40,872 bases of DNA from an uncultured virus (IMG/VR IMGVR_UViG_3300025371_000001) (taxonomy: Adnaviria > Zilligvirae > Taleaviricota > Tokiviricetes > Ligamenvirales > Lipothrixviridae), in the IMG/VR virus record IMGVR_UViG_3300025371_000001; one strand, given 5' to 3'. Both the position numbers and the translations under genes were made by a program. Positions 1,975 to 11,946 of this stretch are shown one piece after another. The notes under the pieces are model-generated. The model had not been told where the DNA came from. It made no database searches and was given only the letters and a program-made list of their open reading frames with translations. Within the stretch, counting starts at the first letter, position 1. Each line of letters starts with the position of its first letter.

Positions 1975-3876
1975 ATGGAACGTAAGACACTCATAATCAT
2001 TCTCTCAGCAGCATTAGCAATAATCATAGCAGTACTCATTTACTATTTCTTCATACTGAAGAAACCAGTAGCACAAGTGAGCGGAATTGAGACCTTTATA
2101 TTATCTCCAGCTAACCCATCTCAATCCACATCTATTACAATACCAACTGGTACGCAGTTAACGTTTGGTATTTATTTGAGTAACGCTAAACCAAATAGTA
2201 CATATACCGTACAGTTAGCAGGTAATACGTATCAAATAAACACTGATGGTAACGGTAACGGAGGGATAGCATTAGCTACTTCTCCAATATCTTCAAACAC
2301 TACAGTAGTATTAACAATAACTGGGCCTTGTATACCATCTGCTTATACACTCAATATTAGTGTAACAACATCTTCAATAACTACAACAATTCCACCACCA
2401 ACAACGACTTCATCAACAACAACCACAATTCTACCGCCACCACCAACTACGACAACTACAATTCCACCACCAACTTCATCAACAACAGTAACTCCGACTT
2501 CTACTATAGTCAGTGGAGGTTCTCAATATAACGGTTTATTAATAGGATTTGAGACCCTGTTTAGTTCAACATCGTCTACCCCGTCACAGCAAGGTAATAT
2601 ACCGTTTTCTGTGTTAATATTACCTACTCATCCATCTGGCGGTGCTGTTTGGGCATATGTATTTACTCCACAACAAGTATCTAATCCTTCATTATTACAG
2701 CTATGTATTTCAGGAGCAGGCGTGAACACATGTTCTGGTAATACTGGAGGAGCTTCTTATGTAGGGACATATAATGGTTATTATGTATATGAGTTCTGGT
2801 ACCCACAACAGATGTATTTAAATCAATCTTTCAGTGTATATCTAGGCATGTGTCCAGCAAGTAACCCAAGTTGTTATGCAGGAGCAGGATTAACTCCAGT
2901 TTCAGAAACAATAACTGTACCAGGCGGAGTCCCAGATTATGTTGCTAACGGATATCAATTAGCCATACCTTCTAATAATTGGCTACAATATTTACAACAA
3001 TTTGGTGTAAGTATATCCAACTATCAAGTAATTGCACCAGAATTCTTATTTGGTACAGAAGCAAGTCCTCAATACTTCTTGCTCAATTACTTGTGCAGCC
3101 CCGTGAACAACAGTTATTATGGTGGTAGTGGCGACCCATCGACTATACAACAATTAGTAACCTCTGGTAAACTCTTCTTCGGTCAAATATTTACCACACC
3201 AGCATTGATAAGTTCTTGTTCAGGGTACAGTGGTGGATGTTTTGGACTATTATATGGTATGGCGTTCCCAGGAGACACTGCAGGAATAAACAATTCACAA
3301 ATACCACTACCAAGTAATTGGCAATTACAAGGAGGATTGTATCCAGACGTAGAGGTAAACATAGTGATAAAGAACGGTCAATTATGTGCTCAACCCACTA
3401 CATTCAATGGATACGATGCACCTGCACTCATAGAAGCTTTAGGAGCCAGTAACCCATTACCTTTGCCTGCGTCTGGCGTACCTCTTGGTCAAGTGAATTT
3501 CGTTTCGTGGTATAAGAATTATATCGTCGATTATAATAGTAACTTACCAACAATAAACGTAAACGGTGTACCCTTACAATTCTATTCAATGAGCAATAGC
3601 ATATTTACCGAACCAGTTTCAGGGAAAGGGTTGCCTGGTGTTGGACAACAATACAGCGTAGTAATAGGGCCGGCTAACGGGCAATACGGCCCGTATCTAA
3701 GGCCTACTATAACATTTACCCTATATCAATTTAATACTGTACAAGATTATATAAATTGGGTAGTTAACGCGATAAATAATGGACAATATGTGCTACATGT
3801 ATATAGCACACCAATAACTGTGTCAGGAATGACACTTTCAAGCTATTATATCGAAATAACAGCACCACCACCATAA
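1975..3876 (+). CDS. Membrane-anchored or secreted surface (glyco)protein with Thr/Pro-rich linker
   Basis: 633 aa; N-terminal hydrophobic helix flanked by basic residues; TTTIPPP repeats; Cys-, Gly- and Tyr-rich body. Confidence 0.75.
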   Translation: MERKTLIIILSAALAIIIAVLIYYFFILKKPVAQVSGIETFILSPANPSQSTSITIPTGTQLTFGIYLSNAKPNSTYTVQLAGNTYQINTDGNGNGGIALATSPISSNTTVVLTITGPCIPSAYTLNISVTTSSITTTIPPPTTTSSTTTTILPPPPTTTTTIPPPTSSTTVTPTSTIVSGGSQYNGLLIGFETLFSSTSSTPSQQGNIPFSVLILPTHPSGGAVWAYVFTPQQVSNPSLLQLCISGAGVNTCSGNTGGASYVGTYNGYYVYEFWYPQQMYLNQSFSVYLGMCPASNPSCYAGAGLTPVSETITVPGGVPDYVANGYQLAIPSNNWLQYLQQFGVSISNYQVIAPEFLFGTEASPQYFLLNYLCSPVNNSYYGGSGDPSTIQQLVTSGKLFFGQIFTTPALISSCSGYSGGCFGLLYGMAFPGDTAGINNSQIPLPSNWQLQGGLYPDVEVNIVIKNGQLCAQPTTFNGYDAPALIEALGASNPLPLPASGVPLGQVNFVSWYKNYIVDYNSNLPTINVNGVPLQFYSMSNSIFTEPVSGKGLPGVGQQYSVVIGPANGQYGPYLRPTITFTLYQFNTVQDYINWVVNAINNGQYVLHVYSTPITVSGMTLSSYYIEITAPPP

Positions 3877-4463: not shown

Positions 4464-4560
4464 CTTTTCCTTTTCTCAACTCGTACTCTTTTTCTATATA
4501 CCTCTTCGAACTTCTCTCCTTCTTTCTCTCTCCCTCTTCTCGTTTCATCAGTATGAAATT

Positions 4561-4634
4561 AAAACTACGTCACTCAGGACTGGGTAAAATTTAAATTCCA
4601 GAACGTGTAAAGTGTAATAAAATACTCCGAATGT
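4561..4634 (+). promoter_or_regulatory. Array leader/promoter, copy 1
   Basis: AAAACTACGT.ACTCAG.AC.G.GTAAAATTTAAATT..AGAAC....AAAGTGTAATAAAA, conserved before arrays 1, 3 and 4; TATA TTTAAA 4590-4595. Confidence 0.8.
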
Positions 4635-4875
4635 TGCACATAAGCAAAACAATTGCTCAATAATCACATCGCTGCACACAAGCAATCGGCATATTCAATA
4701 ACAAAAAGTTTGCACACAAGCAAGTCAAGACATCAATAACCGCTCCACTGCACACCAGCAAGAGGAGAAGTCGATAATGTGCATATTGCACACAAGCAAT
4801 CCTGATTGTTAATAAAATACAAATTGCACACGAGCAAGATAAAATTTCAATAAGAGTTAGATTGCACACAAACAA
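4635..4875 (+). repeat. TIGR-like dual-repeat guide array 1 (6 units, 38-nt period)
   Basis: Repeat TGCACAYAAGCAA at 4635, 4673, 4711, 4749, 4787, 4825, 4863, alternating with TCAATAA; two variable 9-nt spacers per unit. Confidence 0.9.
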
Positions 4876-4948: not shown

Positions 4949-5980
4949 ATGAGTGAAAAAGATTTGGTGAATTTAAGGGATTTGGTAGCGTTCAGAGACG
5001 ACTTAATTAAGCTTCGTGTAGCATATGGAAATAGAATAGGTGCAAAAAAAGAGAAAAACGGTTGGGTATTCATAAGGAGATATTCGGTATGTAAGAATAA
5101 TCACTTAGTGCTGCTTAAGGAAGACGAAAAACGTGACAAATGTCCAATATGTAATGAACCAGTCAAAATTGTTGAAGAAACGCCGTCGGATGAACTCGTA
5201 CAAAGATACATGGAATTACTTAAACAACAAGAGATAGTCGAAGGACTTATAGCGGACGCTGTTACTAAATTCCCCGAGTTTACCAACTTCTTGGCATTTA
5301 TTAGGGGTATAGGACCAGCTAACGCTGCAAGACTCCTCGCTTATGCGTATCCGCCAAGGTACCAATACAGAGTCAATGCGTTCAGGAAATATGCGGGCCT
5401 GGCAGTAATGTTTACATGTCCTAAATGCGGGTATTACTATTACGCTGGTGAATCCTCGAACGGTAAACCGGCCGTTCCCTCGAAAGAGGGTTGGCTGTGC
5501 CCTAACGACGGTACCAAACTCATAGGTACAGCAGCAAGAAACGTTAAGTACAATAGGACTGTTAAGACGTTTTTACTAGGGATTCTAGCTAATAACCTTA
5601 TATTAGCTGGTGGTGTTTACGCAAAGATAATAAAATCATTTAAGGAGGAAATTGCGTCCAAACACCCAGACTGGCCTAAACTAAAAGTACAGAGGACTGC
5701 TATCAGGAAAGCAATATCCTTACTATTAACACAATACTTTGCCATCTCCTTGCATTATCGAGAAGGAGTGCCACTAACTGAAGCCTATAAGGTAGTTTTG
5801 GGGAAAGAATATGAAGTCATAAGTAAACATGAAGACTTTATAATTGCTCCAGTGACTGATTACTACGTTGATATAAAATCAACTAAATATAAGGCAAGAG
5901 CTGAAAAGGTAATAGAGGAGTTGGGGGTAAATAAGGATGAGGTAATAGCATGGCTTAAGAAGAAAAAGATTATTGAATGA
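4949..5980 (+). CDS. IS110/Nop-domain RNA-binding protein, TasA-like (no RuvC/HNH), with two Zn-ribbon insertions
   Basis: LRDLVAFRDDLIKLRVAYGNRI helix; IRGIGPANAARLLA...FRKYAGL motif; YNRTVKTFL...RTAIRKAISLLL tail, all typical of the IS110 C-terminal/Nop region; no N-terminal DEDD domain; CxxxH..CxxC and CxxC..CxxD; flanked on both sides by dual-repeat arrays. Confidence 0.8.
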   Translation: MSEKDLVNLRDLVAFRDDLIKLRVAYGNRIGAKKEKNGWVFIRRYSVCKNNHLVLLKEDEKRDKCPICNEPVKIVEETPSDELVQRYMELLKQQEIVEGLIADAVTKFPEFTNFLAFIRGIGPANAARLLAYAYPPRYQYRVNAFRKYAGLAVMFTCPKCGYYYYAGESSNGKPAVPSKEGWLCPNDGTKLIGTAARNVKYNRTVKTFLLGILANNLILAGGVYAKIIKSFKEEIASKHPDWPKLKVQRTAIRKAISLLLTQYFAISLHYREGVPLTEAYKVVLGKEYEVISKHEDFIIAPVTDYYVDIKSTKYKARAEKVIEELGVNKDEVIAWLKKKKIIE

Positions 5981-5981
5981 T

Positions 5982-6389
5982 TGCACACAAGCAAAATATC
6001 CATTCAATAATATTTATATTGCACACAAGCAATAAAATCGCTCAATAAAAATGTAGATGCACATAAGCAACCAAAAGGCTTAATAACGTGGTCGTTGCAC
6101 ACAAGCAATTAGGGAGTTCAATAAGATGGAGTCTGCACACAAGCAATCAGCTATTTCAGTAATGAATGTACGTGCACATAAGCAATAAATACGTTCAACA
6201 ATGAAATCAATGCACACAAGCAAGAAAAGATTTTAATAATTATTTTCCTGCACATAAGCAAACAAGGCATTTAATAATCGAAATCTTGCACACAAGCAAA
6301 GGAGAGGGTTCAATAATGGTGTCACTGCACATCTTTTGCACATAAGCAACTGATTGATTATTAATAAAATACCAATTGCACACAATACC
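5982..6389 (+). repeat. TIGR-like dual-repeat guide array 2 (10 units)
   Basis: Repeats at 5982, 6020, 6058, 6096, 6134, 6173, 6211, 6249, 6287, (6326 partial), 6337, 6377 (degenerate); begins 1 nt after the stop codon of the Nop-domain gene. Confidence 0.9.
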
Positions 6390-6503
6390 AAAACTTTAAA
6401 CCCTATCGATACAATTACAAAGTTGGGGGTTAAGGGGGTGGAAAGCCTCGCCTCTCTGAGGCGGGGTAAAATTTTTAAACCTAAACAATTATTTATCTCC
6501 AAG

Positions 6504-7668: not shown

Positions 7669-7878
7669 TAAGTATCAGTTAGTGCAGTAGAATTTATAGT
7701 TTTCTGTAGTTAAGGGGACGAAAAACCTCATAGATGGTTGTGGGTCAGATCTGAGCTGTTACGTTCAGTTCTGATTAACGTTTCTATCTTTCCTCACTTC
7801 GTACTCTTTCTCTATATACCTCTTCGAACTTCTTCCCTTCTTTTCCCTCTCTTCACTCCGTTTCATCAGTACGAAATT

Positions 7879-7953
7879 AAAACTACGTTACTCAGTACGG
7901 AGTAAAATTTAAATTCTAGAACAGTTAAAGTGTAATAAAAACACCTCGAATGT
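7879..7953 (+). promoter_or_regulatory. Array leader/promoter, copy 2
   Basis: Near-identical to 4561-4634; TATA 7908-7913. Confidence 0.8.
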
Positions 7954-8400
7954 TGCACACAAGCAAAATAGGCACTCAATAAAGAGACTGTTGCACACAA
8001 GCAAGATAACGACTCAATAAGTAAAGTAGTGCACATAAGCAAGAGTGAACGCCAATAATAATATTTTTGCACACAAGCAACAAAGCCATTCAACAAATAT
8101 CTGATTGCACACAAGCAAGGTATTCCTTCAATAATTCTGCCGTTGCACATAAGCAAGATAACGACTCAATAATTATATTGCTGCACACAAGCAACGAAAT
8201 TGCTCAATAAAAATGTAGATGCACACAAGCAATAATGCATTTCAATAAGTTGCGTATTGCACACAAGCAAAGGTAAGCTTTAATAATCAGTCTCCTGCAC
8301 ATAAGCAATCAAAAAAGTCAATAATATAATCTCTGCACGTAAGCAAACAAAGGATTCAATAATTTTCTACTTGCACACAAGCAACAAAGAAGTTCAATAA
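7954..8400 (+). repeat. TIGR-like dual-repeat guide array 3 (11 complete units + 1 partial)
   Basis: Repeats every 38 nt from 7954 to 8372; all spacers are 9 nt. Confidence 0.9.
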
Positions 8401-8559
8401 AATACATCTCTAAGTTTTCACCATGTCTTATGAAGCCTCGCCCCTTCTAGGGGTGTTTTTAAAAAAGTTTTCAAGCTCAGGCTGCAAGGATTTTCCAATA
8501 ATGCTATAAGATTAGAAAACTTTAATAGGCACTATTTAAAAACAATTAATAGAGTAGTG

Positions 8560-8643
8560 TTAGAGATGAGGGAACACCTGGCGTAGCGGCCACGTGTTCC
8601 TGACAAAACAAACATCAAACCTTGCATGCGGGGAAGAGTTCAG
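8560..8643 (+). ncRNA. Candidate small hairpin RNA ending in a degenerate IS200/IS605 right end
   Basis: Stem GGAACACCTGGC (8571-8582) / GCCACGTGTTCC (8589-8600); ends GCGGGGAAGAGTTCAG; upstream TTTAAAA box. Confidence 0.35.
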
Positions 8644-8685
8644 AAAATTTTTAAGTTAAAATACAGAAAACTTTTATGTTAAAAA

Positions 8686-11230: not shown

Positions 11231-11250
11231 GTTCTACGTTAAAGGGACGT

Positions 11251-11324
11251 AAAACTACGTTACTCAGTACGGAGTAAAATTTAAATTTCAGAACGTGTAA
11301 AGTGTAATAAAATACACCTAATGT
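11251..11324 (+). promoter_or_regulatory. Array leader/promoter, copy 3
   Basis: Near-identical to 4561-4634; TATA 11280-11285. Confidence 0.8.
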
Positions 11325-11946
11325 TGCACACAAGCAAGGGAGTTCCTCAATAAATATCATTTTGCACACAAGCAATTTTGAGGCTCAATAATGGATGTAT
11401 TGCACACAAGCAAAAGGGAAAATTCAATAATTAAAAAATTGCACACTAGCAAGAGAAATGCTCAATAAAGACTTAATTGCACACTAGCAATGGGAAAATT
11501 CAGTAAATAAACGATTGCACACAAGCAAAAAATCGTCTCAATAATAATCGATTTGCACACTAGCAATCGGCTACTTCAATAATCTTCTTGATGCACACAA
11601 GCAAAGGAAAAAGTCGATAATATAGACGCTGCACATAAGCAAAAAGAGGGTTCAATAAATACTGTAATGCACATGAGCAATGAATGAGGTCAATAAGAAA
11701 TATACTGCACACGAGCAATTTAGAATCTCAATAAATTGCCTACTGCACACGAGCAACTAAGCTATTCAATAAAAAACCAATTGCACATAAGCAAGAGAAA
11801 ATTTCAATAAGAGTTAGATCGCACATAAGCAACAGATAAAGTCAATAATATCTATCTTGCACACAAGCAAGTGCCTAGCTCAATAATTACTGCACTGCAC
11901 ACAAGCAAGATAAAAATTCAATAAGAAGTGAAATGCACACAAGTAA
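11325..11946 (+). repeat. TIGR-like dual-repeat guide array 4 (16 units)
   Basis: 17 repeats from 11325 to 11934; 38-nt period with one 39-nt unit. Confidence 0.9.

Follow-up and report, generated by a model that had tools for sequence, protein, structure and literature searches.

By the definition of Faure et al. (2025, PMC12045711), a solo Nop protein adjoining a dual-repeat TIGR array is a TasA. The described members are FpTasA from that study, MbTasA (bioRxiv 10.64898/2026.09.09.750476) and PlTasA (bioRxiv 10.64898/2026.08.11.744272). Pairing of one guide per dimer with the two strands of the DNA has been described for TasR, TasH and PlTasA (bioRxiv 10.64898/2026.08.11.744272 for PlTasA), and among the relatives both guide processing and repression by TasA have been reported (bioRxiv 10.64898/2026.09.09.750476 for repression). 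The coiled-coil tip and the wedge loop are named variable insertion sites of Tas proteins in these accounts, and the wedge separates the displaced DNA strand. The archaeal array precedent in Faure et al. (PMC12045711), their reference 39, is Acidianus tailed spindle virus (ATSV).

Here we analysed a stretch of 40,872 nucleotides from an uncultured virus, referred to as the window. The 343-aa product of one of its ORFs belongs to TasA, the class of dual-repeat TIGR effectors without a nuclease, and the missing nuclease is ordinary for this class. The gene, its arrays and the regions of the protein discussed below are listed in Table 1.

Table 1. Positions of the tasA gene, the TIGR arrays and the protein regions in the window
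Feature	Position	Strand	Remarks
TIGR array 1, upstream of tasA	4635..4875	+	6 units of 38 nt
Guide unit of array 1 (spacer A 4762-4770, spacer B 4778-4786)	4749..4786	+	matches helicase genes
tasA gene, 343 aa	4949..5980	+	coiled coil and Nop domain; without RuvC or HNH
Zn-ribbon-like module 1, about residues 31-80 (C48, H52, C65, C68)	5039..5188	+	coiled-coil tip; at the modelled dimer interface
Zn-ribbon-like module 2, residues 152-202 (C157, C160, C184, D187)	5402..5554	+	wedge loop after YAGL
Y288 and H294, candidate guide-processing Tyr/His pair	5810..5830	+	proposed from position and conservation; compare SpTasH Y289/H296
TIGR array 2	5982..6390	+	begins 2 nt past the tasA stop codon; 3' end ragged, with 8 regular units parsed
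TIGR array 3, stand-alone	7954..8410	+	11 units parsed
TIGR array 4, stand-alone	11325..11946	+	16 units parsed

The TasA protein and its arrays

The protein had no matches in Pfam and no significant match in a single-sequence search of the PDB, and a PHROGs search returned its own unnamed family only. A profile search gave a hit to TasR (9mty) with an E value of 7.3e-5. With the AlphaFold model (mean pLDDT 91.3), the same TasR structure was the best Foldseek match (E 7.5e-5), followed by TasH and then by IS110 (E 7e-3). Structural alignment (VIA) to 9mty extended over 191 residues with a Z score of 16.6 and an rmsd of 2.7, while the Z score for IS110 was 11.4. The model opens with a coiled coil whose first helix consists of residues 3-30, and the alignment begins at model residue 7, equivalent to TasR residue 112, which lies past the RuvC domain of TasR. 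No N-terminal RuvC, HNH or DEDD domain was found by Pfam, in the model or in the structural alignment, and in an alignment with 71 close homologs their N-terminal extensions did not exceed 43 aa. An earlier note, made from the DNA letters, had described a protein that starts directly at the helical segment and lacks DEDD, RuvC and HNH domains, and the model bears this out.

The dimer model scored 0.64, compared with 0.00 for the best control. The mark used is attained by 20/30 known pairs and by 1/23 single chains, and the model may pass it through its likeness to solved Tas dimers. The runs had at least 79% of contacts in common, with pLDDT values of at least 78. The modelled interface takes in residues 43-53 and 75-80, which belong to module 1, and residues 29 and 83 contact residues 8-15 at the N-terminus of the partner protomer. 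Y288 and H294 are candidates for the guide-processing pair described in SpTasH, being conserved in 67/69 and 69/69 sequences of the close-homolog alignment, respectively. A pair of Y280 and H294 with widened spacing was considered and dropped because the tyrosine retained in the relatives P0073 and P0074 is Y288.

The 71 close homologs share 61-99% identity with the protein. Two named relatives are B343 of ATSV (KU645528; 81.5% identical over the full length), which is annotated as hypothetical in a different virus genome and is followed by an annotated repeat region, and ALG97163 of Sulfolobales virus YNP1 (79.2% over the full length); both have the same gene-then-array layout as the window. 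No tas homolog of this clade was found in the species-representative genomes searched.

Each array unit has a 13-nt edge repeat, a 9-nt spacer, a 7-nt loop repeat and a second 9-nt spacer, 38 nt in total. The edge repeat starts with TG and ends with CAA, and the loop repeat starts with TC and ends with TAA; these ends are similar but not identical to those of TIGR-TasA, and there is no CCA. At least two units were present in 74 of 84 tas loci, the window included. The ten remaining loci are mostly short contigs; two are longer with more divergent genes, and one is a weak match only. In three distant Tas relatives from viral contigs (L150, L151 and L154) the dual-repeat arrays are of the ordinary 36-nt kind, and a 38-nt unit may therefore be peculiar to the clade of the window protein. 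A leader of about 100 nt is shared upstream of three of the four arrays (4470-4663, 7788-7981 and 11250-11353), and part of it resembles non-coding DNA of SMV1. Arrays 1 and 4 have their last units and trailer in common, and a hairpin (6445-6467) stands behind array 2.

The hairpin is one of several short GC-rich hairpin repeats in the window, the others being at 90-116, 1897-1923, 8430-8460 and 8619-8645, and they resemble the ends of IS200/IS605-type elements. Twelve genes of the ATV ORF273 family were found between 13417 and 28682, in tandem runs flanking a pair of MoxR ATPase and vWA genes, and genes of like size nearby may be further paralogs. There is also a short match to SMV4. These features suggest that the window comes from a Sulfolobales virus akin to the large spindle viruses. 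Two long ORFs rich in Asn, Thr and Ser (149-1585 and 1975-3876) had no Pfam match, and the latter has a hydrophobic N-terminal stretch and a Thr/Pro linker; both likely encode surface or adhesion proteins.

Two cysteine-rich insertions

All six cysteines of the protein lie in the two modules. The positions given in the earlier note for C48 (nt 5090), H52 (5102), C65 (5141), C68 (5150), C157 (5417), C160 (5426) and C184 (5498) agree with the translation. That note had put module 1 inside the N-terminal helical region; the region is right, and in the model the module can be placed more precisely at the coiled-coil tip, where it lies between the two helices. The ligand pattern is C-H-C-C in module 1 and C-C-C-D in module 2, with D187 at the fourth ligand position. 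When the query was aligned with the 71 close homologs, C48, H52, C65 and C68 were all kept in the 70 sequences that cover the site (two N-terminal fragments of the 72 fall outside), and C157, C160, C184 and D187 were kept in 72/72, so both motifs are conserved throughout the close homologs; a lack of conservation was one of the outcomes by which the earlier note would have been refuted. In the more distant relatives P0074 and P0084 a Cys is aligned with D187, and therefore the second site is probably Cys3-Asp.

Both modules are all-β insertions in the model. Neither contains a helix, so neither is a ββα nuclease finger. The model and the alignment together give the layout of a zinc ribbon, with two conserved ligand pairs on β-hairpin knuckles, and we infer that both modules bind zinc. 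When module 2 was searched alone with Foldseek, no match reached an E value of 0.001 or better; the weak best matches (E above 0.3) were adenylate kinase lids and rubredoxins, with no nuclease among the top rows. Adenylate kinase lids have Cys3-Asp zinc sites, which add heat stability. For module 1, scores in the ESM Atlas were 0.78 or less.

Distant relatives were collected by profile search. From the best 150 of 312 matches, 125 of 149 new proteins were aligned, keeping only those of 240-420 aa. Counting at least three Cys per site among these 125 (from the best 150 of 312), 13 had both modules, 10 the tip module only, 17 the wedge module only and 85 neither. A stricter count of knuckles in 127 relatives from the same best 150 of 312 gave 13, 11, 6 and 97, respectively. 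Thus the two modules are present or absent independently of each other, and similar Cys modules occur in 40 of the 125 aligned relatives from these best 150 matches. Since like modules are also present in the published table of Tas proteins, both are probably structural and not a new weapon. The possibility that such insertions are typical of described Tas proteins, raised in the earlier note, was borne out in so far as they occur in the published table; they belong to a minority of the relatives, and the main texts searched make no mention of zinc.

Guide matches in small plasmids

Each predicted 18-bp target was composed of spacer A and, after it, spacer B in reverse complement. The rule of pairing with two strands is that of Faure et al. 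(PMC12045711), while the order of the spacers in the target is our own inference and was tested against the alternative orders. The guide set contained 746 unique guides from 84 loci, of which 41 are from the window, and the pooled target set amounted to about 1.0 Mb of distinct sequence from hot-spring mobile DNA. At one mismatch or less, 13 of the 746 guides were matched, related guides being non-independent, whereas shuffled pairing gave a mean of 4.15 (sd 2.0, maximum 11) and none of 500 shuffles reached 13. The alternative orders gave 5, 5 and 6 matches. On computational grounds, this supports tandem targeting, with spacer A on one strand and spacer B on the opposite strand of the neighbouring DNA. 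By chance, about 4 of the 13 matches are expected, and 733 of the 746 guides (98%), including 40 of the 41 from the window, were unplaced at this threshold.

Small plasmids had 4 matches at one mismatch or less against 0.34 expected from shuffles. Plasmid-type sequence holds 8 of the 13 matches when the SSV10/11 helicase and the plasmid-like segments of SMV4 and the contig L098 are counted; of the five matches elsewhere, three are to other viral contigs that carry tas. The only groups above the shuffle level were the small plasmids and the contig L146. The loci carrying tas had 4 matches against 2.15, and 82 of 500 shuffles were as high. STIV and SIRV4 had no matches at one mismatch or less, and neither had the window itself. 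When 231 guides were first compared with 14 loci, no excess was seen. There was no clear excess in YNP1, ASV1, ATSV, SMV1/3/4 or G001; nor was any excess found in pRN1, pRN2 and pHEN7, in large viruses or in conjugative plasmids.

In the discovery step two of the 746 guides matched L146, one of them being the window unit at 4749. The genes matched in L146 encode an MCM-like helicase, 73% identical to the SSV10/11 helicases, and its upstream neighbour. A homology search yielded a further contig of 4.3 kb, L188, which has genes for PlrA, a CopG-like protein and a helicase; among plasmids its best match is pSSVi, one of the two described archaeal virus satellites. In the helicase gene, the window guide agrees with pSSVi in 17 of 18 positions, with L146 in all but one and with L188 in all but two. 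Another guide is an exact match to both L188 and pXZ1, where the copG-like gene ends. L188, pSSVi and pXZ1 were chosen after the first match, and with this choice 7 guides matched the sense strand of L188 with up to two mismatches against 0.2 expected, and 5 matched that of the L146 tail against 0.13 (30 shuffles); on the antisense strand there were 0 and 1, respectively. The L188 operon, with a boundary set after the matches had been seen, still had 6 guides within two mismatches on its sense strand once the two discovery guides were taken out, against 0.23 (maximum 2 in 150 shuffles), and the antisense strand and the other spacer orders had none. The matches are concentrated in the copG-ORF-helicase operon for replication of small integrative pSSVi/pXZ1-like plasmids, on its sense strand. 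Mismatches within genes fell on third codon positions in 14 of 23 cases. A guide match tells the origin of the guide, not repression by it.

At the junction of the two spacers, 67% of the guides have a pyrimidine at target position 9 and 78% a purine at position 10. Together with a purine-rich spacer A, this bias could reflect a preference in acquisition or in bending.

In L146 (1-5139), tas and an array are directly upstream of a pSSVi-like copG-ORF-helicase operon, and therefore plasmid-type elements may carry TIGR-TasA themselves. The operon ends in a split SSV-type integrase (N-terminal piece) and tRNA-Gln, and L146 may be an integrated plasmid-type element bearing its own system. Segments of 100-140 bp in SMV4 (L176:10344-10463) and SMV3 (L180) resemble the copG-ORF126 junction found in the targeted plasmids, and in SMV4 the segment is matched by one guide. 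A viral scan with the window guide returned 2 loci, and viral scans with the L146 helicase and the L188 ORF126 found nothing further. A separate guide family is common to five loci (L005:1570 and 2256, L007:8265, L008:4046 and L013:9910) and varies at target positions 3 and 15 only, as synonymous codons would. This family had 7 viral matches, none of which looked like Sulfolobales viruses; a screen of genomes, the host genomes being covered by this one guide pattern, gave 59 matches with no Sulfolobales title, and none of 15 further sequences was matched.

Proposed role and comparison with described systems

We propose that the protein is a binding-only TasA with structural zinc ribbons, a share of whose guides are directed at the replication operon of small plasmids and serve to suppress satellite or competing plasmids, and we give this reading a probability of about 0.6. 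The arrays would be transcribed and cut to 38-nt guides, as in the family, with Y288 and H294 as the candidate processing pair. A dimer would carry one guide; spacer A of this guide would base-pair on one strand of the DNA, and spacer B on the opposite strand over the neighbouring 9 bp. Because the nuclease domain is absent, TasA would bind without cutting and block transcription or replication. Since a share of the guides match the copG-ORF-helicase operon, the virus probably suppresses satellite or competing plasmids in the shared host by way of this operon. Module 1 may brace the dimer at the tip of the coiled coil, and module 2 may stiffen and enlarge the wedge that holds the displaced strand, which could be useful in a hot-spring host. 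The earlier note had suggested a catalytically inactive effector such as a repressor. This is supported, yet it is the defining trait of the known TasA class, for which repression has been reported (bioRxiv 10.64898/2026.09.09.750476).

The same binding-only protein could instead be a general tool against rivals, with most guides directed at other viruses or host genes and plasmids as a minor share. We consider this unlikely, though it is the strongest competitor: exact or one-mismatch matches do occur in the tas-carrying L002, L009 and L131 and in SSV10/11 and SMV3, and 98% of the guides are unplaced, but only the small plasmids and L146 exceed the shuffles, the count in tas carriers is close to chance, STIV and SIRV4 are without matches, the matches in SMV4 and L098 sit in plasmid-like segments, and the 59 genome matches of the widely shared guide family include no Sulfolobales. 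It is less probable still that the zinc ribbons are an effector arm that recruits a host or viral partner, such as a nuclease, integrase or transcription factor, or forms a cryptic active site, a reading akin to the "differently armed" effector of the earlier note, for which no support was found. The ligands are invariant in the close homologs, and in the dimer model module 1 stands beside the N-terminus of the partner protomer, where TasR attaches its RuvC domain. Module 2 lies where IS110 carries its serine loop. However, the modules have no helix, module 2 resembles only structural zinc ribbons (at non-significant E values) and no nuclease in the top rows, the two modules come and go independently, and in the relative P0203 a Cys-rich tip coexists with an N-terminal extension of 92 aa.

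A remnant of an IS110-like RNA-guided recombinase, or an aid to integration, is very improbable. IS110 structures do come after Tas in the fold search (E 7e-3), and Faure et al. (PMC12045711) suggested that TasA might aid integrases. Against this, the protein has no DEDD domain, its Z score is higher with Tas than with IS110 (16.6 and 11.4), the guides come from multi-unit arrays and not from a single bridge RNA, and the matched sites are within replication genes, not attachment sites.

A broader version of the plasmid-suppression reading is tentative, and we hold it at somewhat less than even odds: large hot-spring archaeal viruses would have an adaptive, RNA-guided, non-cutting defence against satellites, with guides taken from the sense strand of satellite replication operons, preferably at a pyrimidine-purine junction, and satellites would sometimes capture the system. 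If this is true, a TIGR-TasA system would have its natural targets identified, and a trace of spacer choice would be visible in the sequences. What is new here are candidate natural targets of TasA guides. pSSVi and pXZ1 are named Sulfolobales plasmids, which makes the natural role of TasA testable with a defined guide and site. The sense-strand and junction biases bear on spacer acquisition, an open question, and a compact protein of a thermophile virus that binds DNA without cutting it may serve as a tool.

We found no paper on zinc modules in Tas proteins or on TIGR guides against plasmids or satellites, as judged from listings that cover few subscription journals. The word zinc has 0 occurrences in four Tas main texts, and the preprint supplements may hold the window clade, its zinc sites or its targets. 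Three motifs of this clade were not found among 9,182 rows of Table S1 of Faure et al. (PMC12045711). Three entries of that table, node34190, node28232 and node18602, have Cys pairs at the tip site like the window protein; node34190 has them at the wedge as well, with four Cys where the window protein has Cys3-Asp. The zinc modules are a modest variant. The window protein shares the Nop/Tnp fold and the wedge position with the IS110/IS621 bridge recombinases, but it is without their DEDD domain and its guides are encoded in arrays. As far as the published accounts describe them, FpTasA, MbTasA and PlTasA are like the window system in the solo coiled coil and Nop domain, the dual-repeat array, the two 9-nt spacers, the tandem two-strand order and the insertions at the tip and wedge sites. 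Compared with these known TasA systems, the window protein differs in that both insertions are Cys-rich and zinc-ribbon-like and that extra C-terminal helices are present. Its array unit is 38 nt with a 13-nt edge and a 7-nt loop, whereas 36 nt with repeats of 8-12 nt is typical, and the window combines four arrays per gene with candidate natural targets.
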